From positions 18,836,508 to 18,900,507 of the forward strand of contig OZ316895.1 in assembly GCA_973895155.1 (NCBI GenBank): a stretch of DNA of 64,000 nt, read 5' to 3'. The notes below the pieces were generated by a model. That model ran no database searches and was not told the DNA's origin. It saw only the letters and a list, made by a program, of their open reading frames with translations. Each line of letters opens with the position of its first letter. Position 1 is the stretch's first letter. Origin of the DNA: Marsupella aquatica (lineage: Eukaryota > Plantae > Marchantiophyta). This document shows positions 1 to 29,762 of this stretch, one piece after another. Both the position numbers and the translations under genes were made by a program.

Positions 1-639
1 GGCTCCATATGCACATAGTGATGTATGGTTTGACAAGCATCATCTCAGATGACACGATTGTCCAAGTTCCCTTTGATAGCACCAGGCGCTAGCAAATATG
101 TATCATGCATATCTGGTCCGTAACGGTAACTCCCAACGCTAGCGCCAGGCGCTATCAAAGGTGTACTCGATAATCAAATGGTAACTTTAACGGTTGTCAG
201 GTTAATGTTTATTAGCGCCCGACGCTAGTAAACTATTCAAAAAGAAATGGTCTGTTCTCAAAGGAATATTATCTTCCGTGTAAATATATGAGAGGATAAA
301 GAGACCATAACCGCATCTCCCTATGATAGCGCCAGGCGCTAACAAAACTTTGAGTCAATTTTTGAAGGTTCCAGACTGTAATATTTTACTAGCGCCTGGT
401 GTCCAACGTCCCCCGACTCACATGCCGCCAGAGGTCCAGTCGTCGTACATTTAGGGTACTTTGCTTCCTTTGGAATTGTTCCTGCTGAGGCAGATTCTTC
501 TCATTTGCGTTGGTGTCGTTGAGGGATGCGTGTAAGGAGAATCCGCACGATTAAGCGTACAAACTCCCAAACTAACTCTCGTACAAAATGAAATTGAACG
601 GGAAAAATCTCTGCATCGCAATTGGGAGAGTATATCAAA

Positions 640-3600
640 ATGGGATCTGGGTCGCCAAACCATTCCCAGTCCTTAGAGTCATCGTATTCCAGTTGTGTTT
701 CAAGTCGAAGAGTAACTCAATCCATAGCGCAATATCCTCTCAGTCAAGTTGAGCTTCCTTGTCCAAAACCGAGGCAATTGAAAATGGAACATGTTGGTGA
801 GTTTGCCATTTAGAATGTCGATGACATTGAGAAATCGGTGGTCAATGTCATTGAAAAGCACGTGATGTCATTTGGAGTTGATGCAAATGGGTTACCAAAG
901 GAGCCTCCAAGAATTCCTTTATGTCATCTTGTTCACATGGAGGTTGTGCGCACTCTTCAGAGGAACAGTCAATCGATTGAGAAGCTGAAGGACTCGTTTC
1001 GGACATCTGGATACAATTCGTCCATTGGCATGCGCTTTTTTGTTCAGCCATCCAACGTTGAAGGTAATCCGCAAATTTGTACAAATGAAATTTTGGGCAC
1101 TTGGGATCCTCTTTAGATCATGGAGAACCAATTGTTCGAAGCGGAATGTGAATCAGACCCCGCTTTCCACGTCCTCAAGGACAAAATGTTCTATGTTTTT
1201 TATGGAAATTATCGGCTGTTTTCGTGGACTCAAGTCAAAAATGAGAGTCCAGAGAATCCTAAGTATCATCCTCGCGTGCAATGCACAATTTTCAAAGGAG
1301 ACAAGGCATCAATCATCAAGATTGAGGCAACGATGCATATTGTTAACCAGTGAGTTTTCTTTCACCACCGACTACTCTTCCCAATTTTGATTGTTTCCCT
1401 TTGACAATTTCTCCCTTTTTTCAGGTTGTATTGTTAGGTTAGCGCCAGGCGCTATTTCTAATGTCCTAATTTTCATAGGACGGGACAGGCAGTGGTAGAG
1501 TCTTCTTGGATTTTGGATGCGGACAGAATCAGGAGGATTTTGGCTCATGATCTTGAGTACTACAAACCCATAATTGATGAGGCAAATTATGCAAAATTTG
1601 AGAAGATAAGGAAAGGAACCCGAAAGGGTTTGTGGTTTACCAAGAAGATGCCGATGGAGGTGTTGGTATACATCTTGTGTGAAAACAAGATCAAATCATA
1701 CTCGCAGCAATTTCAGGTGATGACGAACCAGGCGAGCAGTTCCGGCGCTCCATGGTTGGTCGAAGAGACGAATCTTTGTCACAGTCAGATGATGAAGGAA
1801 GCCACTAAGGAGTGGACTGTGAAAACTCCGAAGCTCACTTCCTTGCTGAGCCCAGAGTTTGAAGATTTCATGGACACTTGCGCTGAGATGTATTGTCTTA
1901 CAGATCGACTCAAACGTGTAAAGGTCCCTGAAGCTGTATTCTGCACTACGGATAGAGCTCGCTTGTTCACTGCCAATTCGGCATTAGATCCAAAATTGCA
2001 AAGTACATTGCTTGTTGCACATTGTACTCCCGAGTTATGGAAACAATTTTTCCATCCGCTCGGAGTATCGGACGACCCCGTGAAGTAGTGGTGCCACACC
2101 TGGCATGTTTGGAACACGATTGAGGGGATAGCAATTGCTCTCCTTGAGGCATGTTTGAAGGAGCTATGGGTTCATGCACCAAACAACGTCTTACAACACT
2201 CGGTGGAGAACTGATTTCCTTTGAGAAGTTGAAGGCTTTGATTGTAGATGATTTTAGAAAGCATGGGGATTCCGTAAGGGCCAAGTTTTTCAACACTATT
2301 TGGGATTCCAAGTACGCTAACAAGGAGGATTTGAGTGAAGTGAACTGCAAGAGAGCCAAGAGATATTTGTATCAATACTATGTGAAAATGGAGAGAAGAC
2401 ACCCAAGCTATTTATGGGCTTATCCTGGTGCCTTCCAGAAATGGGCCGTTGTGAATATGAGGTCCGAAGCGTCTGGAGACTTTCTTGGGTACACCATGTA
2501 CCCACCGGAGGGAAAGTTTTCCCCAAGGAAAATGGCAAAGTGGGAGGTTTTGCATTGTCCGTGGTATCTTGACACAGACAAGTGGAATTCACTGTTTGAT
2601 CTCGGGGGGGTCACTATATGAAGGGTCATACATCACGTGCGATGGTTTGGGTCATTTATGACCCCCCTAAGTCACTTTCTAGAAAGTTATACAACATCAA
2701 TCATGTGATGACAGTATGCATTTTGCAATTAAACAACCCTATATTTCCATAGAAGACTTAATAAGTCTTCCGCCAAAACCATTTAAATGACCCTATATTT
2801 CATCGCACATGATATGCCACTTCCATGGAAGTGACCCCCCCGAGTGTTTGATGAGACAGAGAAAGATGCTTTTCACAAGTTATCAAAGAATTTGGAGCCC
2901 AGAAACATTTTGTCAGAGATGAAGCAGGGAATTGATGCCGAGATTGATCTCTCGGCGATAGAGCTCCAGCGGATTTGTGAGATGCAAGTCGTCCAAGTTG
3001 CAAGGAGTCAAAAACCAAGAGCAAAACCCAAGCAAGAAACCACCCCAAGTGGATCTCAAAAAGAGACCAAAAAAAGTGAGTTCCTAATTTTGTAGCTTCA
3101 AATATTTGTAATTGTCAATGTTTTATTTGGCTAGCGCCAGGCGTTGTTATTAATGTAACAATTTCTCTAGCAGGATCTCGGAAATCAGATGCGGGGTTGG
3201 TGTCGGGTAATGCTTTAACTGCAACTCCAGAGCCCTCTCGTGACAACAGTCTTGGGAAGGATGAGGATCCGCCAGTGGACGCCACGAGCACTAGGAAGAA
3301 GAAGAAACGTTGCATTTCTACTTCTGGTGGGTCTCACAGGGAAACACTTGCGGCGACTGGTTTACAGAGGAATGTGGGGGACTTCAAGGGGAATAAAACC
3401 AGGCACACATTCGTGGGGTCTACCTTGGCAAAGTTCTACGATAGTGTGTTTCAGAGGGAAGAGAAGCCATCTTTGGTTTCTCAGGTAGAGGCCCGGGGAA
3501 AGAATCATGTGAAGACGGGTTCTCGGTCGAAGGGGGTTATTAGAGGTGAAAAAGTTAGGGCATTTGGTGTCAATGCAGGATTTCTATATTTGCCTACCGG

Positions 3601-4612
3601 ATTGAGGCCATCACTTTTTGAGAAGAAAGTCCCAAAATGGAATGTGCAAGACCACTCTCTCCCTGGGGCTTTCTTTAGCGCAATGGACCCTTTCCTATCG
3701 GACGATGGACTTCTGGCTATTCTTCACACTGGAGAATATGACCAGATTTTGGAAGTGATATCTGCATGCCAGCAGTCGCAAAAAGTTTGACTGTATTGCA
3801 TCGTATACAGTTGTCATGGGGTTTCCTATGTATAAACCTAAGTCTGACACTCAGGTAATTAATGACATCCATTTTGGCCAGCGCTAGGCGCTAATCTTGT
3901 ATATCATTCATTTTGGCCAGCGCTAGGCGCTAATCTTGTATATCGTTCATTTTGGCCAGCGCCAGGCCCTAATCTACATATTTTTGTTTCATGACCTTAC
4001 TATTCTATTGTTTTGTAGATCTTCACGATGCGGTTGGATATATTTGGTCGTGTTTTGAGAAAATCAACAATACCGAAAGATCCCAAGTTCCGTCCATTTT
4101 TGCCTTCCAAAGATCCTTCAATTACAAATCTGATAGGACTTCCGTCTTTAAAGTCGGATCCAATGCCAGAACTTGTGGCTTGTGGAAACGGGCGGCTCAC
4201 AGTTGGTTTTATGCAGTCCGTTATAGAGATCATCTCCTGTCTAGGGGATATTGTGATCGACTGGACCTGTTGCTTAGAAAGTTCATTTGTGGCGAGAGAC
4301 TATTGTGGTAGATTTGTTGTTGGGGTGGAAGGGCGAACAGAGTTTGTCACGGCTTCAAAGTGTACCTTAGCTGACCTTTTGGAGCCAAAGTCAACTTTGA
4401 CTCCAGAGAAGAGATTGTCAAGGAAAGGGAAAGAGAAGTTGGACAGAGTACGATCAATTTTGAACTTTGATTCCAAAGAGAGCGAGTCGGATGTTGCTGG
4501 GGAATCTGATGAGGAAGAGATTCCAGTTGTTAATCTAGGAGACAACGAGGCAAAGAAAACAAATCCCTCGGGATCAAAATATGATTTCAAGGATGAGGAG
4601 TCTTCTGAGTAA
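640..4612 (+). pseudogene. Decayed multi-exon gene (copy A): ParB/Srx-like N-terminal domain, helical middle region, C-terminal beta-class DNA amino-methyltransferase-like domain; probably TE-borne
   Basis: ORFs 622-813, 838-1116 and 1120-1353 are one frame broken by TAG stops. GT-AG introns at about 1350-1478, 3076-3173 and 3855-4018. ParB-like pattern VRTLQ..SIEKLKDSF..GY..FFV..FYVFYGNYRL (cf. DGNHR). MTase-like segments FLSDDGLLAILH and IEIISCLGDIVIDWTCCLESSFVARDYCGRFVVGVEG (cf. S.PGD.VLDPF.GSGTT..A....GR..IG.E). Homologous throughout to copy B. Confidence 0.7.
3868..3975. repeat. Three ~39-bp tandem units, each with a palindrome variant, inside an intron of copy A
   Basis: cattttggccagcgctaggcgctaatcttgtatatc repeated at 39-bp spacing. 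Confidence 0.85.
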
Positions 4613-5754
4613 TACTCGAAAGCTCACTCCAAATGTACGACTGTTTTCAGCAACATATTTTTGGTAAACTTAGTGTTTGTTTCAATATGGATGAAACTTT
4701 CAAGTCAGAGTGGAATACGCGGAGAAGGTTTGAACTCCGGAAAATGATCGCTGAAGCTATGGAGATATATTACACCAGAAAAACCATTTATTCTCCCATC
4801 CTATGCTAAGAAAGCCGCCATAAAAGTAGAGAGGTCTTGGACATTATCTTGGGAAACAAAAGGTCTGAGACTTAGAAGAGGTTCTGATAGGAAGTTTTTG
4901 GTGAACAAATTTGTGGATGACATGTGCCGGAGTGAGTTTGTGGACGACGAGGTGGAGTTGACCGATAGATCCGATAGTAGTGAGACAGAGTCATCTGAGT
5001 AGATCAGTTATGAGAACCCCATTTGTATCATTTCCATCGTATAAAAATGTTCAAACATGAACTTTGTGTCAAATTCGTATATTGTGTTCACAAGTGAGCT
5101 TTGAGAAATATGAAAGTTCAATATTTCACTTTAGCGCTTAGCTTCATGCCAGAGACTATTGCAAAACTTGGATTTACATTATTTTGGGGACATGCTCTGG
5201 GTGACTCGTATTTGTATAGCGCCTGGCGTTAACCAAATAATATGTTTTCGGAATTTTCAAGGAACAAAAATGATATGGAAATGACTTTGTTTTTGATAGC
5301 GCCAGGCGTTAGCCAATACTATGCCTTCTGGAACAAGTATTACTGTTGAAGTTTTGTCGGTTAAGTGAAATGAACGTTGTCGTGTCAAAAGATTTCGGCT
5401 CAGGAATGGCTTTTATAGGGGATGATGGGCGAGGCCTCCTGATTGGGTTGCGTGCATGCTGACTCGGAGGGGCTGCTTGGTTGGATGGATTGAGGTTTGG
5501 TGATTGGGTGACTCGTCATCACCAAGTTTGGTGTTTGGGTGAGTCACCAGGCTTGGAGTTTGGATGAGCCTCGCTGATGGCAACTGGCTCAGGCTGGATG
5601 GTTGGGTTTCCGATGCTACTTAAGACTTGAGCCTCGGCTCATTGAGGTTGGCGATTGTCTATTGAGATCTATTGAGTTGCGTTCTGTGAGTTCCGCTCTG
5701 TTCTGCGGAACTCGACTGTTGTGCGACGGTTTTGGAGTTCTGAGCAAGTGTTGG

Positions 5755-5900
5755 ATCCAGGTGTGGAGTATTCAATCCAGGCAGAAAATTTCTTGAGTTT
5801 GGAGTCTCGTCGATCCAGGCGGGGATTTCTCAAGTTTGGAGTCTCGTCGATCCAGGCGAGGATTTCTTGAGTTTGGAGCCTCGTTGGTCCAGGCCCGAGT
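5755..5900. repeat. Short tandem repeat (~37-38 bp, about 4 units) in a non-coding, LTR-like region
   Basis: tccaggc....atttct..agtttggagtctcgtcga units at about 5776, 5814, 5851 and 5888. Confidence 0.75.
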
Positions 5901-7789
5901 TCCGTGTGAGTTGTTTTAGACTAGTGGAGTAGCTAGTCGAGTTTTGGTTTTGTGAGCTAAGGAGGATAGTTTTTCCGTCAAATTTTGAGTACTTAGTCAC
6001 TCGAGGAGTTCTACTCGATAAGTTAGAGGTAGCGGCCCGCCGTAGGGCCAGCTACCAAACTCTTGCGGGCAAGCTTACTCGAGGGCACCTATTGTAACCT
6101 TTGTGAGAAAAGTAAAAAATATGAAGGAGTGAGAGTTTGCTCCGAAAAGTGCTTGTCGCTTGTCCCAATTGCAGCCAGAAACATGCAGTTTGCCCGAGGA
6201 GCCCCTAACTTTAAGTCCTCGCGACAATGTAAGCACCCGTTGGGGCGATATTCCCCGTCGGTCCATTCTCATGCATTGGTTTGGTCGTATGTCCGTTGAA
6301 TCCAAAAAATGGTGATCCTTTGAGGGGGCATACATTCGAGTAAGCCCTCCAGACGAGTTTCGCTCTAGCTGTTCACACTGTGCTCTTGTGGTTTGGAAAG
6401 TATACTCTATGCTTGAAGGTTGTTTCTTGCGCTACAAGCGTTGAGTAACCCGATCAAAGTAACCGTCAGTGGACGATATGGAGCGTCCTGGTGTCAATGT
6501 CGATAACGTTATGCGGCCCCAGAGGGAAGTGCCAGCATCGAAGGAGCATACCGATCAGACGGTCAACTTCGGGTCATCGACACTGATTGCAGACACCGAG
6601 AGTCGCGTGACCGAGACTTCTGACATAAGGAATCATCTCCAGCTGCCTACGGACAAGGGTATGAGCCCGGGTGAATGAAACATTCCTTGGCTTCCTGATT
6701 CTCCTCCGAGGCCATTTCAGGAGAGATTCTCAATTCATTATCCAACTCCCGAACATCCTTCATCGAATGTCTTCTGGGATGTGGAAATTCAGTCTGCCAA
6801 ATTTCTTGGTCGTATCAATTTCTATGATACAAACCTTCCTGAGTCTTCATTGCGCCCTTCGCAAAGGCTTCCAAGTGCCCGGTACGTTGCAACTCAAACA
6901 TTTGGCTTTCGACAGAAGCCAAAACGCAAGAAGGCAAGGCTCAACGATGAATGTGAATCTTTGTTTGATCCAGGATCATCCTAGGATCATGGTGGTCATG
7001 GTCTTGGGTAGCGCCTGGCGCTACTCATTTCATGGAGGAGACCCGCATCCGGTTCATAGTTTGGAATCGGAGGAGGTGCACTTGGTGCTTCGTTTTGGGA
7101 TTAGGTTAGGCTTGTGAATGGGTTCTTTCACCGAGGATTACTCTGTTAGAGTGAGGTTGACTACAATTTGCAGGGCTCAATGACGGATTTGGGTCTTTCG
7201 CTGATCCGACATTCTTCAATAGAATTGTGGTTAGACTCTTAGGCCTCCCAGAGATACTTGTTTTGCTGATGCAATCTGTGATCCGGTGAATAATTTTGAA
7301 TTGGTGGAGGTGGACTTTAGGCTCCTCATTTTGGAATTTTGTATTGTGCTTCATTAGTAGAAGCGTGTATACACAATATTTTCACTTTAGTAAAAATCAT
7401 TTTTGGCTTGAGTTTTGTTAACTGGCATCATTACGTTTTTCATTTTTGGGTAGCGCCTGGCGCTATGATGTTTCATGGTTGTGTTTCATTACAATATTCA
7501 GTTTTGGGTAGCGCCTGGCGCTATGATGTTTTCACGTTTGAGTCGATCGCTATGTTTGGAACCCTGGATGATGAAAAGTGAACATTGCTTTGGATTTTGA
7601 GAGTTTTTACCCATTGATAAGTTGGGCTATTCATGGAATATTCTCTTTGCACATGTTATTTTGGGATATATTGTTGACATTTTGGTTGAATTATTTTCCT
7701 GTTTCCTTTTTGTTGTTTCTTGTTTGGATTTTCCTATTTCCTGGCACGGTGGTGATACCCCCATGTAGCAAGGCGTGTCATTCCGAATG

Positions 7790-10700
7790 GTGAATGAGTC
7801 AATGTGATCCAACTTCTCAGCCCAGTCAATGTGAAGGTACTCAAAGATTGAGCCTGTGTGGGCAAATGAACCGCTGTGCACGATGCACAGGAAACCGTTG
7901 TTTGTGAGTAGAGAGTCTGCCAATGTTGTCGCCACTTCTAGGTCACTGATCCAAAATCTATTCCACACCGGAACATTATTTTCAGCCTGTGCTAGGCGAT
8001 AATCTATCCCTAGCTGAACAAAGATCATATCACAACCATGGCCCTTAGGTACACACCATCAACTATCCAACCTTGTTTTCACAAGCCAGCCAACTTCAAT
8101 TTCTTACACCAGTCCCGGAATTCCCTCATGAATGGAGGGAGAGGCAACTTTCCCGTGGTTGGCTGATATTTGTCCTTCAGCCAAGAAGAACACTCTAGTA
8201 AGATCATATGCTCTTTTGCGTGGCAAAATCAGAGGGCAGATGTTATGGCATGAGAGGGCCAAGGTACTCCAAGAATCTCGCAAGGATCATCCTCCGGAAG
8301 AAGCGGGGCTTTTGTTGAAACTAGCTTCTTTGTGGCCTCTTCTATTCTCTTCTCAACTTTCTTCTTTGGTTGACTGGTTGGCTTACCAGGGATTTGTGGT
8401 TTGCTTGGGGTCCCGCTTGGGGTTGAAAGGTCAGCCTCCTCCTCCTCCTCCTCATGGCCCTCTGCATTGTCCCCAGTGGCCATTTCATCCTCCTCTCCAT
8501 TGTCCCCACTCGCTTTCTCATCCTCCTCTCCATTGTCCCCAGTCTCCTTCTCCTCCATCTTCTCATCCATCGGACGGCGTTTGCTTGATGTAGACCTTGG
8601 GGTTCCAAACTTTTTTTTACTTTTTTCTGTAGAACAAACTAAGGAGTTTAGTATACATTTTACAATGATACTATCTCGGAGAGGCTCTCCATCATAGGTC
8701 AGATGCCCAATGCAAAATGAAAGCCAGGGTGTAAACCTTACCAAGAGTGCCTTGTTTTGAGGTGGTGTCTTCTGATTCCTTATCATTCTTCCCCCGAACC
8801 TTCTTCCCATCATACTCTGGCTCTCCAAGAGGCAAAATGGTCTCCAAATCCAATGCAGCCTTTGCCGACTACGCAAGATTGGCCAACTTTGAAGGCTCAA
8901 AAAGGTTGGTTGGTAGTTTCCCCTCCTTTAGGAGGTTCGCGGCATCCTTCTCTTGGGGCATAGTGAACTCATTCCAATCATTGAACTCCATGAACCATGG
9001 ACAATCCACTCTTGCTGTTGGCTTCAGCCCATCTGGTGGATACATTGACAGAGGGTCTTTCTCTGTCATCCATGCAGTCAGAGCACTTGGTAACACTTTG
9101 AAAGTAGAGGCTCCAATGCTCTCTTGATGAAGTAAATATCTGACCACACACCTCTTTGCACGCTTCCTCCACACATCTTTGCTTTGCTTTGCTAGATTCC
9201 ACATCTTCTTGCCCTCCTCATAGGACCGAGTCTATACAAACTGCTTGTACATCTTGTTGTGAAACTCAACAAACTTGTCTTTGCTTCCATTGAAGTTTTG
9301 CCACTCACCAAAATCATATGCACTTTTGGAAAACTCTGACATAATCAAACTACCAACATGGGCAATGTAACACCACATTGACTACACTAGCGCCCGAGCT
9401 CTCACTGCTGAATCACCATATACATCTAGATGGTGGTGTCGCTTCTTCTCCTCCGCGGTTGAGAAATGAACGTGGAGTAACCTGTTTTGACACTCAACAG
9501 GCATGACTGTGCTTGCAAACAATTTAACTCAATCCAACCCCACTTGCACTTGTGGCTGATCTTTATGATTACTCTGCAACTGGTGCAACTCCTCGGCTAT
9601 CTCTAAAAATTCCTCTCCATTTGCTGGATTGACAATCTGAGCAAACTTCTGGATTTTGCCCTCCCAAGACCTACATCTTCACTTGTCATGAGTGTGGTTT
9701 CCTTCTGGAACTTCTCCAAACTCCAGGTGTGGCCAATTGCGGCATTGGCTGCCATCTCCTTTGCAAGACGAATCCTCCCATCTTCAATATTATTCCATGA
9801 CATGATGTACACAGCAGCATCCTTTGTCATGCACTTGCTGTACCATGTCTTTCCATGCCCATGGCTTCTTGCTGCTAAGAATGTAGCATAACCATCCGGA
9901 TGAAGCAATGTCTGATACTCCTCCAATGGTGTCATCAACAGCTTCTTCACCCTGTCTGCATCGGTCAACCAAGATGTTTGCACAACATTTGCGCTTATCC
10001 TGCGTAAAATAAGTGACAAATGTTGGCGTCAAAGGCTATGTATGAGCAATTTCAAGTTGGACATGTCTCTCTTGGAGAGGCTCTCCGAGAAGGCATCGCT
10101 CTTCAACAAGGCATGGATATCTTGGAGAGGGTCTCAGAGAAGGGAAGGTTCATTCTATCTTGGAGAGGCTCTTCGAGATAGCATTTTAGGGCCAAACATT
10201 CTATGTATGTATGTATCTATCTTGGAGAGCCTCTCCGAGATAGCATTGCCCGTCTAGGTACTCCATCATTTCTGATTGTCACCTACTTTGCTCCCCTTAA
10301 TATGAATGTCTATAAGATGGGAATTGCTGATGCACATTATCCATTTCATAGGTTAATCCAAGTCATTCATGATATATCACCACTAGGGGAGACATGGATA
10401 GTGGGGGACTTTAATGCCAGGGTATCTAATGAACAATTTACTGAAAGTGAGGACTTAGGAACTTTACCTTGGTCATCATGTAGTGAAGAGATACCTTGGG
10501 TGAGAGAGGCTCTTGACACCAGAACAAATGACATGACACGTCACTTTTTGCATTTGGGAGCTTCTTGTAATCTAAGAATATTGAATGGGCTTGAGAGATT
10601 TCCCCAATCATCTGGTTACACTTTTAGATCTAAACAAGGATGTAGTACCATTGATTACCTTCTTGCCTCACCTACCTCTGCCACTAGAGTGGTTGACTTT

Positions 10701-13486
10701 CAAATACTTGATCAACAACCAGAGTCTTCACACTTGCCTTTGTTGTTCCATCTTGACCTGACCACAATCCCAAACAAAGTGCATAGAAAGCCAGTACCCA
10801 AACCTCTGTTTCTAGACCCTGATAGAGAAGTCATCTTCAAAGCCAACTTTGAACATCTTCTCCATACCCTGGATGATCAGATTGAGCTCTCAGAAGTCAT
10901 AGCACAAGCAGCAGCCTCTACTTTCTCCACCAAACCCCCTAGAAAGCAAAACATGAAGGCTTGGTTTGACGAGGATTGTGCTAGAGCAAGGATGCAAGCA
11001 AGATCACATTCAGGGGAAAAGAGACTTTTGGCATTCACTATGTACAAGAACTTCATCAAACACAAGAAGAGGTGCTTCTTGAAGAGTCATCAACAATCAC
11101 TATGTGAGGAGTTCATCAAACATCCAAAACGTTTTTGGGAGAGAATGCAATCAGGCAAGACTACTCCCCCCTTGGATCACCAGGACCTGGTAACCTATGT
11201 CACATCCTTGTATTTCTTTCCAGATGCTAGTGGCATGCCTTTGCCCCTTGGGGACACCATTCAGTTTACAGAGAGGGAGGTGAAGGTGCATCTTTCCCAC
11301 ATGCAACATGGGAAAGCTAAAGATCTGTTGGGCCTGAACTTGGAGCTTCTTTTGTGGGGAGGACCCTCTTTACTAACAAACTTGGTGCATGAGCTGAATC
11401 AAGCAATGGCTTTAGGTTTACCTAAAGCTTGGATGACCAGAAGAGTGGTGCCTATCTTCAAGGCAAGCAACAAGGACGATGTGCACAACTACAGAACCAT
11501 CATGGTAGGCAATACTTTTGCTAAAGTTTTGGGAGGACTACTTGAAGCCAGATTAAGCTCTTGGTTGGAGAGTGAGATGAAAAGGGCACCTTCACAAGCA
11601 GGTTTTAGGAGAGAATTCAGCACTATGGATCACATTCTCTGCTTGAGGGTGTTGTGTGAAAAGGCCAAATCTCCACATAAACCATTATTTTGCTTGTTTG
11701 TGGACTTCTCCAAGGCCTTTGACAAAGTTTCCCGATCCAAGCTTTGGGATAGGATGGTGGAGTTGGAAGTGCCTGAAGAGCTCAGGTTGGCTGTTTCTAA
11801 ATTGTACCAAGAAGTGCGCATCAAACTTTCAAAGGAAACCTCTGAAGAAATCTGGAGCACTCTTGGGGTGATCCAAGGTTGTCCTCTCTCACCAACTCTC
11901 TTTGGCATCTTCATTGATCAGCTACACAACATTTTGGAGGAGCATGGTGGAGTGGGCACTCAATTGGGTAGGTTTGTCCTCCAACTTCTTATATTTGCAG
12001 ATGATGTGGTCCTACTTGCTCATGCTCAAGAAGCTTTGCAAAGACATCTCAATGCCTTGGAGGAGTTTTGTCAAGCAACAGGGATGGTAGTCAACCTCAA
12101 GAAGACCAAGTGTTTGGGCATTGGCACACGACAAAATCCAGAGCTCTACTTCCAAGGGAATCTGGTGGAATTTGTGAGGACCTACAAATACCTTGGGGTG
12201 GAGTTCTCTCAAAACTTGAGTTGGGCCTCATGTGTAAAATCTAGGGCTGCCAATGGGTACAGAGCTTTTTATGCATTCATGAACAAATGCAAAAGAGCTG
12301 GTCTACACACTTGGAGGTTAAGGAAACATCTCTTTGGAGCTTTGGTGAAACCAGTCATTCTTTATGGAGCACCAATTTGGGGAGCAGGTGTGTCTAAATC
12401 TGGGTGGCAACAGATTGAGGGGCTGCAAAAGCTATTTCTTGAGATGGAGCTTGGGATCAAGTCACAAACCCCATATGCACTTACACTTGCAGAGGCAGGC
12501 TTGTTTCCTTTGGAGGTGGAGGCACTCTTCCACACACTCAAATACATCATGCGTGTAAGAGAGTTGGAGGAAAACAGATTTCCTTTTCATGCCTTGCGTT
12601 CATCTTCAGCTAAAGGGTGGTATGCAGATGTGTGCAGGTGGGCCCATGCTTGGGATTTTCCTGAACATGAATGGCCAACACACCCAACCAAGCTAAGAGC
12701 AAAACTTGAGCAAAAGGCTTTGCACAAACTTTGGCATGAACCTAGCCCACGGCAGCAATACTACATGAGAGATGTGAACCCCATGAAGAAATATCGAGAA
12801 CAAGAATACTTATCTAGCACTATCTCAGTACAACTTAGACAACTTATTGCTCAGTATAGACTAAGCTCACACCACCTTGAAGTAGAACAAGGGAGATGGA
12901 AGGATATTGACAGGAAAAAGAGGGTTTGTCAACTATGTGATAGCTCTAGTATAGAGAATGAATATCATGTATTCATTGCTTGCAAGTTTTATGAGGGGGT
13001 TAGGATGGCATCTCAAATCTTGGTGAAAGATTTGTATGCATTGTTTGGTCTGCCCCCTCAATCCGCGGAAAATTCAGACATGGAGTGGATGGCGTTATGT
13101 GCATTGGTCTCTGATATGTGGAATTCCAAAAACTTGTCCACATACCCATTCTTCATGAAGTCCTTCTTCATCTTGAGGATGGAGCTCTATTGGAGAGTCC
13201 GAACTGCCTCCATCGTCATCAAACGACATAGTGGAATCCGAGGTGGCTCTCTGGGCTTCCCGCTTGGGTCAGCTCCAAATGAAACCAAGTAATCCCCAAC
13301 AATCCCTTTGAAAGCACCTTTGTTCAAACGTTCAGCAGACATATTTTCAAAGTTCAGAACCTTCGGCTCCAGCTTCTTCATTGTGTGCGTTTCCCGACCA
13401 CTGGTGGTGCTCTTTGCTATCTTTGATCTGGTCTGCCAACCAGACAATGAAGGAGAGGGAGCGGGTTGCTTCCTCTTCCCTGTCAT
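7790..13486 (-). pseudogene. Decayed paralogous ParB-like/MTase-like gene (copy B), interrupted by a LINE fragment and truncated within the MTase-like region
   Basis: Blocks shared with copy A: SFGADPSGKPREPPRIPLCRLMTMEAVRTLQ vs SFGVDANGLPKEPPRIPLCHLVHMEVVRTLQ; VVQTSWLTDADRVKKLL vs VVESSWILDADRIRRIL; RAKR..MYPPDG..CPWF vs RAKR..MYPPEG..CPWY; VPVWN..LLTNNGFLCIVHSG vs VPKWN..FLSDDGLLAILHTG. First intron acceptor (about 10000) is at the same position and phase as in copy A. A further intron lies at 8627-8741. Confidence 0.75.
10256..13060 (+). mobile_element. Internal fragment of RTEX-like LINE ORF2 (part of APE endonuclease, RT, C-terminal zinc finger), truncated at both ends
   Basis: Near-identical reverse complement of 17116-19919. 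Motifs GDFNAR, STIDY, QGCPLSPTLF, FADD and CQLC..ENEYHVFIAC. Both ends of the 10203-13292 ORF read into host sequence. Confidence 0.95.
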
Positions 13487-13519
13487 TTTCAGAACGCTTT
13501 TCTCTCACCAACTACTAAA

Positions 13520-14110
13520 TCGCACGAGCGCAACTTCACTTGCATAGCACTTGCACCACCCATGGCTCAATCGCAGCAAGCTCAATCACTAGCACTCATA
13601 CGACACTTGCACCGTCCACACCTCAAATACTGCCAATTGCACAGCACTTGCACCGCCCACAGCTCAATCGCAGCAAGCACAATCACTTGCACTCGCACGA
13701 CACTTGGACCACCCATAGCACTTGCACCGCCCACAGCTCAATCACTAGCAGTCTCCGAGAGCACTTCAACTTGCATCGCCCACAACTCACAACACTCAAT
13801 TGCACTGCTTCCACCACTCGCATAGCACTTGCACTTACACTGCTACAACTCACAGCACTCAATCCACAACGCACCCGCACTTGCACCCGCAGCGCCTCAC
13901 TGATTGTTTGGGAGTTTTGCCCACAGCGCACAACTCACAACACTCGCACCCTAAACCTCAGCAACATCTACAACGCACTCACACTTGCACTACATCTGAG
14001 CTCAATCTATAGCGCACAGAGAGGGAAAGATCACACACTAAGGCACACGGGCACACTCAATCCACAATCGCATCCGCACTTGCACTCACTCCGCCTCAAT
14101 TGCAATTCAA
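13520..14110. repeat. Degenerate low-complexity repeats (gcacttgcacc / cacagctcaatc) upstream of copy B
   Basis: Repeated gcacttgca and ctcaatc motifs. The ORFs here are T/H/S-rich by-products. Confidence 0.7.
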
Positions 14111-14589
14111 ATGAGGAAAGGCGAGAGATGGAGGGGACAAGGGTGGATGTAGTCATTATCATCATTAGGCAACGAAAGATCTAGGGGCATCACAACTGAA
14201 TTCACTACCGCCGTCACGCAGGTTGAGTCCCATCCAAGCAACGGGAGATCTATGGGGCCACTCATTGATTACAGGTGGTAGGGGCCACGGGAGGAAGTTG
14301 ACATGTTAGCAATTTATTGGCTTATATGTAGTCATACTCTGATAATGATGAATGCCTGGATTTGACTCATGTCAGAGTTGCAACACTGAAGTACCTGTAT
14401 AGATGCTTTCATTATTATTACCCCTTCACACCATAATGTCCTTGGTACAATTGATTCCAAACCAGATAAGATTTCCTATCATTACGCGGTATTAATGAGT
14501 ATGATCGTTCAACGATCGGCTTTAATTGCAAAAAATATACAGTACTCGCATGACATGTGAGGCCAGTCTCAAGTTGGGACATGTTCCTG

Positions 14590-15245
14590 ATTGTCTTCGA
14601 GATGACATGTCAGGTCAGGACCCATGTTAGAGAGGCTCTCTGAGATGACATGTAATGGCAAGACCCATGTTAGAGAGCGTCTTTGACATGACATGTCAGG
14701 TCAGGACCCATATCAGAGAGGCTCTCCAAGACGACATATCATGGCAAGACCCATGTTAGAGAGCATCTCCAAGATGACATGTCAGGTGAGGACCCATGTC
14801 AGAGAGGCTCTCCGAGATGACATGTCAGGGCAAGACCCATGTTAGAGAGGCTCTCCAAGATGATATGTAAGGTCGAGACTTAAGTTGGAGAGGCTCTCCA
14901 AGATGACATATCATGACGAGACCCATGTCAGAGAGGCTCTCCGGGATGACATGTAAGGTTGGGAATTAAGTCGGAGAGGCTCTTCCGAGATGACATGTCA
15001 GGTCAGGACCCATGTCAGAGAGGCTCTCCGAGATGACATGTAATGACAAGACCCATGTTAGAGAGCGTCTCCAACATGACATGTCAGGTGAGGACCCATG
15101 TCAGAGAGGCTCTCCGAGATGATATGTCATGACGAGACCCATGTTAGAGAGCGTCTTCGAGATGACATGGTAAGGTTGGGACTTAAGTCGGAGAGGCTCT
15201 TCGAGATGACATGTCATGATGAGACCCATGTCAAAGAGGCTCTCC
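14590..15245. repeat. Tandem array, 43-bp unit (about 15 units), containing palindromes GGAGAG(G)CTCTCC and TGACATGTCA
   Basis: Unit gagaggctctccgagatgacatgtcaggtcaggacccatgtta; successive starts at 14630 and 14673. Confidence 0.93.
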
Positions 15246-15567
15246 TCACTGTGACCGCAATTCAGCCCACTATGTACATATATGTGTGTTTCCAACTTGC
15301 TCTTGTCAAGATTTCATCATGAGAGATACTGGAAGATACTTCTTCCCTTGCAAACACTTGTATTGGTGCTATAAAAACATTTGTGGACAAGATCTAGAGA
15401 GTGACCAAGAGATCCACTAGCCAATCTTGAAACTTAGTGAGGTTAGAAAACTGGTGTTAGATGTAGCAGGCTCAGGGTGAATGCATCTTGAAGATGTTTA
15501 GTGTTAATGGGTCAAATGTCACTATTTTGTATCCTTTCATAATAATAAATGTTCAAGATTTCAAATG

Positions 15568-15870
15568 ATGTTGATCCCATCTCGGAGAGGCTCTCCAACA
15601 TTCCAACCCAGTGTTGATCCCATCTTGGAGAGGCTCTCCGACATTCCATCCCAGTGTTGATCCCATCTCGGAGAGGCTCTCCAAGATTCTAACCCAGTGT
15701 TGATCCCATCTCAGAGAACCTCTCCAAGATTCCAACCTTAAATGATCCCGTCTTAGAGAGCCTCTCCAAGATTCCAACCCAGTGTTGATCCCATCTCAGA
15801 GAGGCTCTCTGAGATTCCAACAATTCTTGGAGACATTGCTAACCAATCTCAGAGAGGCCTCCGAGATTGA
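15568..15870. repeat. Tandem array, 43-bp unit (6-7 units), containing palindrome ATCTCGGAGAG(G)CTCTCC with a different linker
   Basis: Unit gttgatcccatctcggagaggctctccaacattccaacccagt; successive starts at 15570 and 15613. Confidence 0.93.
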
Positions 15871-17149
15871 TTAAACCATGAAGCGCGCCCCAGCCCCATT
15901 CAACTGCAAAAAGGATTTGTCAAATCTTGCTAACCTAACTTAATGCTTTTTGTAGTCAATCTCTAATTTTTCTATCGCCGTCTTCTGGTCGTGCCAAAAA
16001 GGTGCTTAATTATCACCCAATTTCAGCCTCACATATGTAGCTAGGTTGGGTTTACTTATTGCCATGCCCCATAAACCTTCATGTTTCCCATGCCCCCTTC
16101 ATATATGACAACCAATGCATGGTTCATGTTCAATATAAGTCCAACTTAAATGTCCAACTTAAATATATATGATCAGCTCTTCACTACCCCAACCCTAAAA
16201 AAGTGTACTTATCATAATGGTAATGTGGGGTCATATATACCTGACTATTTGGCCACATTTTCACCAAAGGGGGTGGTTCAAAGTTGTGACTAACCACTCA
16301 CCCCACATATAACTATTGCGTAAGTCCTTTGGTTTCAAAGGAAAAAACTAATTAGGCAAATCATAGACTTTTGTGTCTCTTTTGTGCTTTCAATGTCTCC
16401 ACTTCAATGTGCGTGAGTGTGCCTTTGGACACAAGTTTAGGGTGCGCGGGTTTCGTTTAACACGGCAGCAGAGTGCAAAGTTGAGTTGAATGTGCGCGGG
16501 AACTCGGTTTAGGGAAAAACTAGCTTGTCCATTCTGCTGTCGGCCGGGGACATTCATCGTGCCTGAAGGTTTTGTGAAGGGTTTTGTGCGAGGAGCTTTA
16601 CGGACTTCACTCTCGCTTGAGAGATGGTGATGGCAGGCAGGTGCAACAGCAGTGCTTGATCAAGGCTGGACTTTATTGCGTAAGTCCCTGCTCGTCGTCT
16701 GGATATGTCATTGTTGTCGGGGTCTTCATGCTCGTCTGATTTGTCTTCTGCTCTTTGTGGCCGAGAGTCGACTACCTCACTCACTGACTTCTTGTCCAAT
16801 GCATACCACAACCCTATTCCTCGTTCTCAGTCTACGAATTGTTTCCAAAACTATTCGGAGAAACTGAGTCAAAGTGTCGTTCGTTGAGTGGTAATGGTAA
16901 TGGTAATGTATTATAAGCTCCGGGACCATGAAAGTCAAAGGAGCTGCCACAAAAAGTAAAGTACAATGCAATCAAAGAAAAGAGCAACCAAAAGAGATTG
17001 CTCAGAAGAGGACAACTATGTCCTCAAAGAAACTATGGACCTAGAGAGCCCTGAAAGATTTTCCAAACCTATTCTCCTTTCCCTATCCACCGCAAAGATA
17101 TATCTTCCAAGTTGCTGAGGGGGTAGACCAAACAATGCATACAAATCTT

Positions 17150-20100
17150 TCACCAAGATTTGAGATGCCATCCTAACCCCCTCATAAACTTGCAAGCAAT
17201 GAATACATGATATTCATTCTCTATACTAGAGCTATCACATAGTTGACAAACCCTCTTTTTCCTGTCAATATCCTTCCATCTCCCTTGTTCTACTTCAAGG
17301 TGGTGTGAGCTTAGTCTATACTGAGCAATAAGTTGTCTAAGTTGTACTGAGATAGTGCTAGATAAGTATTCTTGTTCTCGATATTTCTTCATGGGGTTCA
17401 CATCTCTCATGTAGTATTGCTGCCGTGGGCTAGGTTCATGCCAAAGTTTGTGCAAAGCCTTTTGCTCAAGTTTTGCTCTTAGCTTGGTTGGGTGTGTTGG
17501 CCATTCATGTTCAGGAAAATCCCAAGCATGGGCCCACCTGCACACATCTGCATACCACCCTTTAGCTGAAGATGAGCGCAAGGCATGAAAAGGAAATCTG
17601 TTTTCCTCCAACTCTCTTACATGCATGATGTATTTGAGTGTGTGGAAGAGTGCCTCCACCTCCAAAGGAAACAAGCCTGCCTCTGCAAGTGTAAGTGCAT
17701 ATGGGGTTTGTGACTTGATCCCAAGCTCCATCTCAAGAAATAGCTTTTGCAGCCCCTCAATCTGTTGCCACCCAGATTTAGACACACCTGCTCCCCAAAT
17801 TGGTGCTCCATAAAGAATGACTGGTTTCACCAAAGCTCCAAAGAGATGTTTCCTTAACCTCCAAGTGTGTAGACCAGCTCTTTTGCATTTGTTCATGAAT
17901 GCATAAAAAGCTCTGTACCCATTGGCAGCCCTAGATTTTACACATGAGGCCCAACTCAAGTTTTGAGAGAACTCCACCCCAAGGTATTTGTAGGTCCTCA
18001 CAAATTCCACCAGATTCCCTTGGAAGTAGAGCTCTGGATTTTGTCGTGTGCCAATGCCCAAACACTTGGTCTTCTTGAGGTTGACTACCATCCCTGTTGC
18101 TTGACAAAACTCCTCCAAGGCATTGAGATGTCTTTGCAAAGCTTCTTGAGCATGAGCAAGTAGGACCACATCATCTGCAAATATAAGAAGTTGGAGGACA
18201 AACCTACCCAATTGAGTGCCAACTCCACCATGCTCCTCCAAAATGTTGTGTAGCTGATCAATGAAGATGCCAAAGAGAGTTGGTGAGAGAGGACAACCTT
18301 GGATCACCCCAAGAGTGCTCCAGATTTCTTCAGAGGTTTCCTTTGAAAGTTTGATGCGCACTTCTTGGTACAATTTAGAAACAGCCAACCTGAGCTCTTC
18401 AGGCACTTCCAACTCCACCATCCTATCCCAAAGCTTGGATCGGGAAACTTTGTCAAAGGCCTTGGAGAAGTCCACAAACAAGCAAAATAATGGTTTATGT
18501 GGAGATTTGGCCTTTTCACACAACACCCTCAAGCAGAGAATGTGATCCATAGTGCTGAATTCTCTCCTAAAACCTGCTTGTGAAGGTGCCCTTTTCATCT
18601 CACTCTCCAACCAAGAGCTTAATCTGGCTTCAAGTAGTCCTCCCAAAACTTTAGCAAAAGTATTGCCTACCATGATGGTTCTGTAGTTGTGCACATCGTC
18701 CTTGTTGCCTGCCTTGAAGATAGGCACCACTCTTCTGGTCATCCAAGCTTTAGGTAAACCTAAAGCCATTGCTTGATTCAGCTCATGCACCAAGTTTGTT
18801 AGTAAAGAGGGTCCTCCCCACAAAAGAAGCTCCAAGTTCAGGCCCAACAGATCTTTAGCTTTCCCATGTTGCATGTGGGAAAGATGCACCTTCACCTCCC
18901 TCTCTGTAAACTGAATGGTGTCCCCAAGGGGCAAAGGCATGCCACTAGCATCTGGAAAGAAATACAAGGATGTGACATAGGTTACCAGGTCCTGGTGATC
19001 CAAGGGGGGAGTAGTCTTGCCTGATTGCATTCTCTCCCAAAAACGTTTTGGATGTTTGATGAACTCCTCACATAGTGATTGTTGATGACTCTTCAAGAAG
19101 CACCTCTTCTTGTGTTTGATGAAGTTCTTGTACATAGTGAATGCCAAAAGTCTCTTTTCCCCTGAATGTGATCTTGCTTGCATCCTTGCTCTAGCACAAT
19201 CCTCGTCAAACCAAGCCTTCATGTTTTGCTTTCTAGGGGGTTTGGTGGAGAAAGTAGAGGCTGCTGCTTGTGCTATGACTTCTGAGAGCTCAATCTGATC
19301 ATCCAGGGTATGGAGAAGATGTTCAAAGTTGGCTTTGAAGATGACTTCTCTATCAGGGTCTAGAAACAGAGGTTTGGGTACTGGCTTTCTATGCACTTTG
19401 TTTGGGATTGTGGTCAGGTCAAGATGGAACAACAAAGGCAAGTGTGAAGACTCTGGTTGTTGATCAAGTATTTGAAAGTCAACCACTCTAGTGGCAGAGG
19501 TAGGTGAGGCAAGAAGGTAATCAATGGTACTACATCCTTGTTTAGATCTAAAAGTGTAACCAGATGATTGGGGAAATCTCTCAAGCCCATTCAATATTCT
19601 TAGATTACAAGAAGCTCCCAAATGCAAAAAGTGACGTGTCATGTCATTTGTTCTGGTGTCAAGAGCCTCTCTCACCCAAGGTATCTCTTCACTACATGAT
19701 GACCAAGGTAAAGTTCCTAAGTCCTCACTTTCAGTAAATTGTTCATTAGATACCCTGGCATTAAAGTCCCCCACTATCCATGTCTCCCCTAGTGGTGATA
19801 TATCATGAATGACTTGGATTAACCTATGAAATGGATAATGTGCATCAGCAATTCCCATCTTATAGACATTCATATTAAGGGGAGCAAAGTAGGTGACAAT
19901 CAGAAATGATGGAGTACCTCTGGTATGAAATCTCACCACCATGAACTGCTTGTTGGGATCTTCATGTTCAATAGAGGTGATGTGTTGAAGTTGATTCTTG
20001 GTGTAGACAACAATGCCTCCAAACCCTCTTCCCCGTGTGGTCTTCTTCTCATTGAAGATGGATTGTATGCAAGTAAAGCCTTTAATGCTAGGTAGAGCAT

Positions 20101-20218
20101 TTCCCTCATATTCCCAAGTCTCCGTGAAAAGCAAGATGTCAAAATTCTCAAACAAAGGTTCCCCTCCAATTGCTGTTTCTATGGAAAGTCCTGAAACATT
20201 CCATGCCATGACTCTCAA
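17150..20218 (-). CDS. LINE ORF2: APE endonuclease, reverse transcriptase and C-terminal zinc finger; 1-nt frameshift near the C-terminus
   Basis: 1022 aa. Motifs MAWNVSGL, LLFTETW, GDFNAR, TIDY, SSHLP, FVDFSKAFD, FADD, YKYLG. Has aagtttatg where the other copy has aagttttatg. Confidence 0.95.
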   Translation of the reverse strand: MRVMAWNVSGLSIETAIGGEPLFENFDILLFTETWEYEGNALPSIKGFTCIQSIFNEKKTTRGRGFGGIVVYTKNQLQHITSIEHEDPNKQFMVVRFHTRGTPSFLIVTYFAPLNMNVYKMGIADAHYPFHRLIQVIHDISPLGETWIVGDFNARVSNEQFTESEDLGTLPWSSCSEEIPWVREALDTRTNDMTRHFLHLGASCNLRILNGLERFPQSSGYTFRSKQGCSTIDYLLASPTSATRVVDFQILDQQPESSHLPLLFHLDLTTIPNKVHRKPVPKPLFLDPDREVIFKANFEHLLHTLDDQIELSEVIAQAAASTFSTKPPRKQNMKAWFDEDCARARMQARSHSGEKRLLAFTMYKNFIKHKKRCFLKSHQQSLCEEFIKHPKRFWERMQSGKTTPPLDHQDLVTYVTSLYFFPDASGMPLPLGDTIQFTEREVKVHLSHMQHGKAKDLLGLNLELLLWGGPSLLTNLVHELNQAMALGLPKAWMTRRVVPIFKAGNKDDVHNYRTIMVGNTFAKVLGGLLEARLSSWLESEMKRAPSQAGFRREFSTMDHILCLRVLCEKAKSPHKPLFCLFVDFSKAFDKVSRSKLWDRMVELEVPEELRLAVSKLYQEVRIKLSKETSEEIWSTLGVIQGCPLSPTLFGIFIDQLHNILEEHGGVGTQLGRFVLQLLIFADDVVLLAHAQEALQRHLNALEEFCQATGMVVNLKKTKCLGIGTRQNPELYFQGNLVEFVRTYKYLGVEFSQNLSWASCVKSRAANGYRAFYAFMNKCKRAGLHTWRLRKHLFGALVKPVILYGAPIWGAGVSKSGWQQIEGLQKLFLEMELGIKSQTPYALTLAEAGLFPLEVEALFHTLKYIMHVRELEENRFPFHALRSSSAKGWYADVCRWAHAWDFPEHEWPTHPTKLRAKLEQKALHKLWHEPSPRQQYYMRDVNPMKKYREQEYLSSTISVQLRQLIAQYRLSSHHLEVEQGRWKDIDRKKRVCQLCDSSSIENEYHVFIACKFMRGLGWHLKSW

Positions 20219-20230
20219 GGTCCCAATCCA

Positions 20231-21001
20231 TCATTTAGAAACAACTCTCTTCTTATTGGTAACAACAGCTTGTCCATTGCGCAAGTAGGCTACCAATCCT
20301 TGGTCTTTGGCTACCCTCACCTTCTCAAGCTCAATTTTCCTTGCTTGGACTTGTGTGGGAGTCAGATCATCATCCAACCAAATCCTTAGCCCTTTAAGCA
20401 TGCTCCTGTTAGCCATCACTCTAGCTTTCTCGGATTCAACTGCAAACTTCACCAAGATTGGACGTGGAAGGTCCCCCTTCTTTTGCCCAATCCTATATGC
20501 TTGCAAAATGATAGGGTCATGCACTTTCATCTGAGATTGGAAGAATGAAATTGCTACCTTCTTGGTGTCTTCCTTCTCCTCCTCAACAAGGCCTGATATT
20601 TTGCAGTTGCTGACTCTTGCATGCTGGTTCTTGTGTTCTTCCTCTAGTGCTCTTCTCTCCTCCTCCTTGGCTTGGACAAATTCCATATGTGATTGTTTTG
20701 CAGCCTGTGCAAAGGTTTTGAGCTTCTCCTCAATCTCCCCTACAGCCTCATGTATCACTGATTTCTCTGGGCACATACTCTTCTCCATGTCTCCAAAACA
20801 CGATGCAAGCAATGAGAGTTGCTTACCATTCTCCTGAGTTTGAGATCGAAGATCACTAATCAACCTCTTTTGCTTGACATTCTCATTCTTTAGCTCCGTC
20901 ACCTCCTTGCTGAGTGTGGTAATCTCAATTGCGGAGTTTTCAGCCACAACTAAGATTTTCTCAAGCAAAGCCTTGAGATGGGCAATCTCCTCCGTTGCCA
21001 T
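20231..21001 (-). CDS. LINE ORF1: coiled coil plus L1-ORF1/RRM-like domain
   Basis: ATG of MATEEIAHL at 21001. Coiled-coil N-half, then RVSNCKISGL, AYRIG..RPILVKF and IWLDDDLT, typical ORF1 motifs. Ends 12 nt before ORF2. Confidence 0.88.
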   Translation of the reverse strand: MATEEIAHLKALLEKILVVAENSAIEITTLSKEVTELKNENVKQKRLISDLRSQTQENGKQLSLLASCFGDMEKSMCPEKSVIHEAVGEIEEKLKTFAQAAKQSHMEFVQAKEEERRALEEEHKNQHARVSNCKISGLVEEEKEDTKKVAISFFQSQMKVHDPIILQAYRIGQKKGDLPRPILVKFAVESEKARVMANRSMLKGLRIWLDDDLTPTQVQARKIELEKVRVAKDQGLVAYLRNGQAVVTNKKRVVSK

Positions 21002-21009
21002 CACAAAGC

Positions 21010-24000: not shown

Positions 24001-24442
24001 GCTAAAGTGCATATCAAACGATGTCGGTTGCAGCTCTAACTTTGCCAGTGATACATTCTTGCTGTTTCCAATGCTCTGGCAAAATCTGAGCTCAAACCGC
24101 AGCCGATTGCCCTTCCAACTCGAAGTGAAATTTCGCCCCGAGCTCAGAATCGTGAAACTGGAGACGTAACAGATCGTGCATGCTAAAGTGCATATCAAAC
24201 GATGTCGGTTGCAGCTCTAACTTTGCCAATGATACATTCTCACTGTTTCCAATGCTCTGGCAAAATCTGAGCTCAAACCGCAGCCGATTGCCCTTCCAAC
24301 TCGAAGTGAAATTTCGCCCCGAGCTCAGAATTGCGAAACTGCAGACGTAACAAATTGCGCATGCTAAAGTGCATACCAAACGATGTCGGTTGCAGCTCTA
24401 ACTTTGCCAGTGATACATTATCACTGTTTCCAATGCTCTGGC
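21010..24442 (-). repeat. 181-bp tandem monomer array (about 15 units in blocks of 5+6+4) interleaved with two 5' fragments of ORF1
   Basis: Anchor aaac(c/t)gcagcc at 21063, 21244, 21425, 21606, 21787; 22307 to 23212; 23732 to 24275. ORF1 fragments at about 21880-22250 and 23305-23675. Confidence 0.97.
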
Positions 24443-29608: not shown

Positions 29609-29751
29609 AATGCCTTTGTACCTTAAATGCTAAATATATTTTACTTTCTGTGCAGTCTGCTAAATTGTAGAGTCTATCTAAATGCCTTTGTACCTTAAAT
29701 GCTAAATATATTTTACTTTCTGTGCAGTCTGCTAAATTGTAGAGTCTATCT
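29609..29751. repeat. 72-bp tandem duplication immediately upstream of the PHD gene
   Basis: aatgcctttgtaccttaaatgc...gtagagtctatct occurs twice (starts about 29609 and 29681). Confidence 0.9.
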
Positions 29752-29762
29752 CATGCGCAGGC

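Follow-up and report, generated by a model that had tools for sequence, protein, structure and literature searches.

Why do two diverged copies of one gene, lying side by side in a liverwort genome, each keep company with a palindrome that the other lacks? The question is raised by a 64-kb stretch of Marsupella aquatica contig OZ316895.1 (the window), which carries the paralogues A and B (about 30–45% identity in aligned pieces, intron positions common to both). An initial annotation had described them as ParB-like/methyltransferase-like genes and had proposed that each recognises a motif of its own. We read A and B as decayed accessory genes of two large plant DNA transposon families, whose ParB-methyltransferase-like protein would load on its own palindrome, spread and prevent silencing, and we put the probability of this reading at about 0.5. 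Both units are repeats, one of them has a sharp terminus and is nested in the other, the gene family has a GxxR box, the palindromes lie in non-coding DNA, and each protein clade has one palindrome class.

Motif A (TAGCGCC-N-GGCGCTA) occurs in the window in six exact copies, 10 copies with at most one mismatch and 14 with at most two, all between positions 77 and 7523. Motif B, in its 17-base form TCGGAGAG-N-CTCTCCGA, is present 21 times with at most three and 25 times with at most four mismatches between 8676 and 15812. Chance expectations, taken from 30 order-2 Markov simulations, are 0.07 and 0.2 copies per 64 kb, respectively, and no other perfect palindromes are as frequent in the window. 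Scanning the window revealed no motif A in unit B, no motif B in unit A and neither palindrome from 17116 to 64000. The annotated count of about 15 A copies restricted to A and the rarity of the motifs in unrelated DNA are thereby borne out; of the claim for B, the number (25 for “more than 25”) and the restriction to B stand, but the full 23-mer as originally written has no exact copy. The exons had been described as free of palindromes, and indeed none of the 14 A copies (0/14) lies in coding DNA, though unit A is 62.5% coding (p = 1e-6; p = 5e-5 after merging tandem copies to 10 sites). Motif A is found in all three GT..AG introns of gene A, and motif B in intron 2 and in the remnant of intron 1 of gene B, in line with the annotated presence of palindromes in every recognisable intron. 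Non-coding A copies would reach all three introns by chance with a probability of 0.07–0.14, and intron placement is therefore a weak argument taken alone. At 3144 and 10131, where the motif deviates in the window, other genomic copies have the consensus base.

The palindromes might be neutral by-products of tandem duplication within each family, given that 20 of the 25 B copies belong to the units of a pair of unlike 43-bp tandem arrays and five of the 14 A copies lie within tandem units. Against this, the 10 independent A sites are 89% alike in the motif and 36% alike in their flanks, B sites occur in both introns and in array units of two kinds, and palindromes that differ from one independent clade to the next recur at equivalent positions relative to the gene (see below), so that this explanation is largely refuted and, in our estimation, extremely improbable.

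Pieces of A and B from the window gave no Pfam or PHROG match, word-index protein searches with single window exons gave no match, and PDB sequence searches returned nothing usable. A full HMMER scan with exon 1 of A retrieved 141 relatives; among the 20 that were looked up are seven from Riccia sorocarpa and three from Adiantum ferns, and all named ones belong to these two genera. A profile search yielded 81 proteins, 78 of them from R. sorocarpa, and no relatives were found in the viral and prokaryote collections. The Riccia protein P0144 can be aligned with both A and B over the first domain and on into the middle region, and with A also in the last exon; all exons are located by a profile built from 80 relatives.

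Structural comparison was based on models of intact relatives. For the first domain of P0001 (predicted local distance difference test, pLDDT, 87), the best eight of 48,161 chains all have the ParB/Srx fold (KorB, PadC, Srx, pNOB8 ParB, SerK, Atu1540, Srx and SbnI; Z 7.4–4.5), with KorB matched at Z 7.4 and a root-mean-square deviation (rmsd) of 2.6 over 92 residues. Foldseek likewise placed ParB, Noc, KorB, PadC, SbnI and Srx on top, the best match being 6sdk, ParB with cytidine diphosphate (probability 0.98, E = 0.049). Because the top hits agree on ParB/Srx, the fold call is carried by their agreement, each match alone being modest, and at the level of these models the predicted ParB/Srx fold of the first domain is confirmed. 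The GxxRxxA box is conserved in alignment A1 (G 78/84, N 83/84, H 78/84, R 73/83, A 57/83); it reads YGNYR in A of the window and was removed from B by a long interspersed nuclear element (LINE). The ParB domain of the plant family contains a large insertion. In a full model of P0154 (pLDDT 70), residues 110–381 match KorB 52–193 (137 aligned, Z 7.5, rmsd 4.0), extending 45 residues past the first domain and hinting at a ParB-type DNA-binding region there; the Atlas matches for residues 266–455, DUF6551 and DndB clusters at 0.78–0.83, serve as leads only, and a repeated structure comparison yielded nothing further for this part of the protein. No member of the ParA family was seen among 27 window frames or 66 long frames of related loci, a search that short or broken genes in decayed loci escape.

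The C-terminal domain of the P0154 model (790–1066) has the predicted fold of a beta-class amino-methyltransferase, matching CcrM at E = 3e-7, MboIIA at Z 16.1 (rmsd 3.1, 196 residues) and CcrM, PvuII, RsrI and N4CMT at Z 14–15. PF01555, the sole recurring family when Pfam was run on 88 relatives, appears in six Riccia proteins at E 9e-6 to 8e-4, short of Pfam's cut-off, and the permuted order with motif IV before motif I is that of the PF01555 beta class. This fold, too, is confirmed on models of intact relatives, and both domain assignments of the initial annotation were thus recovered by structure searches. The catalytic motif IV of beta-class N6/N4 methyltransferases has the consensus (D/N/S)PP(Y/F/W). 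The family does not conform to it and mostly lacks the aromatic residue: motif IV is D[LMI]P[TS] in the aligned Riccia proteins, DFPI or DLPT in ferns, DVPS, NVPS, DIPE or DVPR in six metagenome loci and YLPT in gene A of the window, DVPF of the fern protein P0099 being the sole form that has this residue. Catalysis is therefore doubtful, and the domain would more likely bind or shield bases than methylate them.

A different view of the same domain is that the protein binds its own palindrome and is an active amino-methyltransferase that deposits N4-methylcytosine or N6-methyladenine on the element encoding it, with the ParB part doing no more than delivering the enzyme. It would account for the complete beta-class fold, for motif I (DF[AV]GGWG in several Riccia proteins), for the retention of the D and the second P of motif IV and for DVPF in P0099, and it is the reading that the available passages of a paper on Ectocarpus adopt for their own element (PMC12477816). 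Liverworts do have an enzyme for N4-methylcytosine: the accessible part of a preprint on Marchantia describes MpDN4MT1, host methyltransferases acting genome-wide in sperm, with an intact TSPPY motif and, in that part, no mention of a ParB domain (bioRxiv 10.1101/2021.02.12.428880); the present family resembles them in the beta-class amino-methyltransferase fold and in its occurrence in a liverwort. The motif IV variants D[LMI]P[TS], DVPS, NVPS, DIPE and DVPR lack the aromatic of TSPPY-type motifs, and the P0154 group has a diverged motif I, for which reasons we consider an active writer unlikely.

Are A and B genes of the host or parts of mobile elements? Thousands of divergent contig pieces in four public runs (3982 in X1) cover both of them, which identifies each as a dispersed repeat; they are not tandem genes or a gene pair but decayed copies of two dispersed repeat families. 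Several contigs end at 7760 and have unrelated flanks (five in X2, agreement 0.53; two in X4, 0.58), and contigs in all four runs carry B past 7761 with one common sequence, whose terminal splice donor coincides in position with intron 3 of A. From these ends and the shared continuation of B it follows that an exon of B received element A. In one X3 contig, the end of intron 3 of A is joined to 7570, which ties gene A to the terminus at 7760. A check for Mutator terminal inverted repeats and target duplications of 9–11 bp found one end of element A within the window (GGG.. inward, flanks varied); its left end and the rest of B fall outside. Annotated as a gene from 7790 to 13486, B stands as a paralogue of A, but it is split by the LINE at 10256–13060, which replaces about 100 codons of the ParB domain (GxxR box included) together with the intron 1 donor, and it is cut at 7761 by element A. 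Both genes have stops and frameshifts, several of them private to the window copy, and their divergence is transition-rich. The dispersed repeats, the sharp terminus and a colinear unit in relatives uphold the proposed mobile nature. No convincing CACTA-type ends were found for units A and B, and a link of B to the CACTA transposase at 32319–36059 or to frames with PHD and BRCT domains was discarded, as there is no B motif past 15812 and no connecting homologue.

To place the palindromes in a wider context, relatives' loci were collected from metagenomes (365 stretches matched, 126 confirmed, 80 kept, 49 after removal of near-identical ones). Intron 1 lies at the same place in these relatives, many of which are old, AT-rich copies. 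A family of at least three palindromes is present within 2.5 kb upstream in 11 of the 26 loci that are long enough, compared with 2 of 58 distal windows (p = 2e-5, the loci being non-independent). Thirteen palindrome classes were seeded from the relatives' loci and the window and then cross-scanned; 21 of the 49 loci carry a class at two or more copies, 17 of these only one class. On a first-domain tree of 68 rows, with 22 labelled loci (L003 and L009 on one or two copies) and 27 unlabelled ones, each of the five multi-member classes forms one branch (support 99–100/97–100), and 0 of 200 shuffles scored as low. The motifs are clade-private, and the suggested covariation of palindrome type with protein phylogeny holds at one class per clade. 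Three of the scanned classes gave no tree label, namely J (about 4 kb distant), K (overlapping E) and L (the second family of L030), and an apparent palindrome in L039 and L040 was dropped as a low-complexity tandem insertion. B-like sites occur in intron 1 of L002 and L003, and exon 2 of L003 shares 47% identity with B against 30% with A; the first domain of B, spanning 41% of the columns only, does not settle its position in the tree. As a separate observation, a TCGG-CG-CCGA-like core is common to several classes (L008, class E from L020 to L052, L061 and L080), and TCGG..CCGA arms with a longer centre are common to motif B and the L002 and L003 sites, which suggests from sequence that classes with such arms are related half-sites with changed spacing.

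In class E, sites are confined to two places, the stretch from −0.6 to −1.8 kb and the intron preceding the methyltransferase exon, with none elsewhere in up to 20 kb. The class E loci run colinearly between about −8.9 kb and a point past +9 kb, a unit of at least 18 kb. Among all 14 loci with at least 8.6 kb of upstream DNA, six have a divergent (head-to-head) transposase-like frame, two of them being query sources. In L052 and L048 this frame reads, by eye, MFD..MAD..CLFH..W..TCNLIE, which, judged against the DDE transposase with CxxH motif of Mutator elements, we take to be a Mutator-like layout, and has no Pfam MULE match (ZSWIM RNaseH-like at E 0.097 only) and no PDB match. No terminal repeat was found in 17 long loci. 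A repeat seen in about 16 loci was rejected as a partner gene, since its places and strands change as those of a dispersed host repeat. Class E and some other loci (L052 15600–19100, L045 6100–9500, L023, L034, L036, L067 and L073) also have a conserved convergent frame on the minus strand, 5–10 kb downstream of the ParB-like gene, without a Pfam match.

The divergent frame brings up the idea that it is the transposase of the element that binds the palindromes, with the ParB-like gene as a passenger. Copies in element A lie 250 bases from the terminus, transposase and accessory gene have the same history, and the abstract of a preprint reports sequence-specific activation by a Mutator transposase; over the 20 kb of class E, however, no site lies near the transposase gene or in the outer parts, the sites track the promoter and intron of the ParB-like gene, and related sites recur in intron 1 of that gene in other genomes. 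We hold this to be very unlikely. The same class E sites, lying between divergent genes and in one intron and not element-wide, would suit a KorB-like repressor that acts through its own palindrome to hold down both its own expression and that of the transposase, a form of copy-number control in place of anti-silencing, and the repressor KorB is the best structural match. The sites of element A in three introns and the 3′ part, their tandem growth and the parallel with VANC targets (below) argue the other way, leaving the repressor rather improbable. Cognate binding itself, which the anti-silencing, active-methyltransferase and repressor readings have in common, is very probable when these are taken together.

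According to the anti-silencing reading, which we prefer, the protein would bind the palindrome of its own clade as a dimer via the helical middle region, and nucleotide binding at GxxR would close a clamp able to slide away from the sites, in the manner of ParB, KorB and VirB. Bound to the introns and to the promoter region that both genes share, the protein might keep the gene and the divergent transposase expressible, and site and protein would diverge together, each family serving only its own copies. In a more far-reaching form, the bacterial ParB–parS switch would have given rise in land-plant transposons to a nuclear nucleotide-gated sliding clamp with family-private loading that lifts the silencing of that family alone, the methyltransferase domain being catalytically rewired and at least 10 protein–site pairs amounting to a recognition code; this we offer tentatively and think somewhat doubtful.

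Several findings weigh against the anti-silencing reading. The individual ParB matches are weak (E 0.049; Z below 8), and Pfam found neither a helix-turn-helix nor a ParB match in 40 plus 48 relatives. Upstream families of at least three palindromes are missing from 15 of the 26 relatives, a palindrome of a recurring type is present in intron 1 only in L002 and L003 of 34 loci, and eight of the 14 relatives with long upstream DNA have no divergent transposase; in the window, no transposase is tied to units A and B. The motif classes were seeded from the same loci that were later placed on the tree, and since protein and motif are inherited in cis, one class per branch reflects private motifs and is no proof of binding. 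Finally, both window copies are broken and their divergence is transition-rich, so that any protection did not last.

How new is the arrangement? The palindromes resemble the targets of the VANC proteins of VANDAL transposons in being family-specific motifs in non-coding DNA that are multiplied by tandem repeats, and the folds found here are presumably unrelated to VANC's. According to the available passages on VANC, its motifs lie in introns, intergenic and terminal non-coding DNA, multiply as tandem repeats and are proposed to co-evolve with the protein; in contrast to the plant palindromes they are 8–9 bases long and non-palindromic, their function was shown experimentally, and no ParB or methyltransferase fold is involved (PMC5735166). 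The bacterial ParB, KorB, Noc and VirB clamps share with the plant family the ParB/Srx fold, the GxxR box and palindromic sites (15–24 bases in bacteria), whereas the plant family is eukaryotic, intron-bearing and distinguished by the large ParB-domain insertion and by no ParA having been seen. VirB, in the part of the literature accessible, is a cytidine triphosphate clamp that loads at its own sites and counters H-NS silencing (PMC10676424); in a further source, available in part, GxxR is the Box II P motif, fusions of the ParB fold to PF01555 are frequent in phages, and the choice of nucleotide is unpredictable from sequence (PMC12704722).

Closer still by description is the Ectocarpus element Sola1-1_Ec32, a giant DNA transposon with a 1104-aa ParB-like plus N4/N6 methyltransferase accessory gene on the strand opposite to the transposase; the available passages propose self-binding and self-modification of its own element and cite green and red algal cases (PMC12477816). 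It has the ParB-like and amino-methyltransferase domains and a protein length of about 1100 aa in common with the plant family, a likeness by description only, and differs in belonging to a brown alga and in its Sola-1 transposase, and those passages report no palindrome, clade-private motif or state of the catalytic motif (PMC12477816). Red-algal PAG3 proteins, found in Plavaka (EnSpm/CACTA), Mutator and Zisupton elements, resemble the plant proteins in a ParB-like N-terminal domain, a fused DNA-modifying domain and inverted-repeat arrays beside the gene; the accessible passages describe three-gene giant elements with tandem inverted-repeat arrays across families and compare them explicitly with VANDAL (bioRxiv 10.1101/2025.02.11.637652). 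PAG3 differs in its putative C-terminal 2-oxoglutarate oxygenase, the methylase residing in PAG2, and the passages contain neither intronic sites nor a map of motif by clade. The supposition that the arrangement is undescribed holds for land plants, for which no description was found in a literature search that left most subscription papers and Repbase outside, but publications on algae already describe ParB-like accessory proteins with inverted-repeat arrays next to them and draw the comparison with VANDAL. New are the occurrence in land plants, the clade-private motifs and the intronic sites; the concept has already been published, as a proposal, for red and brown algal transposons. VANDAL elements are, in the passages available, the only transposons reported to bind and de-silence their own sequence (bioRxiv 10.1101/2025.02.11.637652). 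If our reading is true, the ParB-fold clamp of liverworts and ferns would add a second solution, unrelated to that of VANDAL, and the mechanism of nucleotide-gated clamps would extend to eukaryotic chromatin. The clade-private palindromes supply cognate and non-cognate pairs for a direct test of self-binding, and such pairs could yield orthogonal, sequence-specific epigenetic tools.

Table 1. Parts of element A and gene B, with positions in the 64-kb window
Feature	Position	Strand	Remarks
Palindrome A, four copies upstream of gene A	77..341 (77, 140, 213, 327)	.	motif scan
Gene A exon 1, predicted ParB/Srx-fold domain	640..1349	+	stops 811, 1117; YGNYR at GxxR box; fold from relative P0001
Gene A intron 1	1350..1478	+	palindrome A at 1440
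Gene A exon 2, helical middle region, candidate DNA-binding part	1479..3075	+	stop 2086, frameshift near 2162, miniature inverted-repeat transposable element (MITE) inside
MITE within gene A exon 2	2601..2844	.	terminal inverted repeats, 8-bp target duplication; presumably hAT-like, by the length of the duplication
Gene A intron 2	3076..3173	+	palindrome A at 3132
Gene A exon 3, linker and first half of beta-class methyltransferase-like domain	3174..3854	+	motif IV region; frameshift near 3780
Gene A intron 3	3855..4018	+	palindrome A, three copies (3879, 3918, 3957) in 39-bp tandem repeat
Gene A exon 4, second half of methyltransferase-like domain	4019..4612	+	S-adenosylmethionine-binding motif I region; PF01555 on relatives
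Small downstream frame	4684..5002	+	frameshift near 4765; by eye like tail of Riccia models P0022/P0148; no Pfam match
Palindrome A, two copies	5217..5311 (5217, 5297)	.	motif scan
Probable solo long terminal repeat in element A	5378..6226	.	contig joints skip 853–865 bases; TG..CA ends
Reading frame inside element A	6478..6984	+	one stop; no Pfam or PHROG match
Palindrome A, three copies	7009..7523 (7009, 7451, 7509)	.	motif scan
Right terminus of element A	7721..7760	.	inward 5'-GGGTATCACC; other copies end here, flanks unrelated
Gene B exon 3, linker and first half of methyltransferase-like domain	7761..8626	-	cut by element A insertion
Gene B intron 2	8627..8741	-	palindrome B at 8676
Gene B exon 2, helical middle region	8742..9999	-	stops, frameshifts
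Remnant of gene B intron 1	10000..10255	-	palindrome B, four copies (10072, 10122, 10160, 10222)
5'-truncated LINE	10256..13060	+	99.8% identical to 17116–19919
Gene B exon 1, first half of ParB-like domain	13061..13486	-	profile of relatives
43-bp tandem array upstream of gene B, 15.1 units with palindrome B	14594..15245	.	tandem-repeat and motif scan
Second 43-bp tandem array, 5.9 units, different unit, with palindrome B	15569..15821	.	tandem-repeat and motif scan

The composition of the window is uneven. The ratio of observed to expected CpG is 1.01 upstream of A (1–639), 0.65 in gene A (640–4612), 0.35 in the 3′ part of B and 0.37 in the CACTA gene, and such differences between regions could be explained by age or family composition. 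The LINE copies at 10256–13060 and 17116–21112 are inverted and 4 kb apart, the longer one having ORF1 and an open ORF2; the ratio in the short copy is 0.08. Tandem arrays of a 181-bp unit at 21009–24442 are interleaved with partial duplications of the LINE 5′ part. CACTA/EnSpm transposase pieces (Transposase_21, DUF4218, DUF4216, Transposase_24) extend over 32319–39921 without either palindrome, and just upstream lie frames with a PHD finger and tandem BRCT domains (29736–31906), possibly accessory genes of this transposase. Tyrosine-recombinase-like frames at 56532–59427 (PHROG integrase, E = 1e-4) perhaps represent a Crypton-type element.

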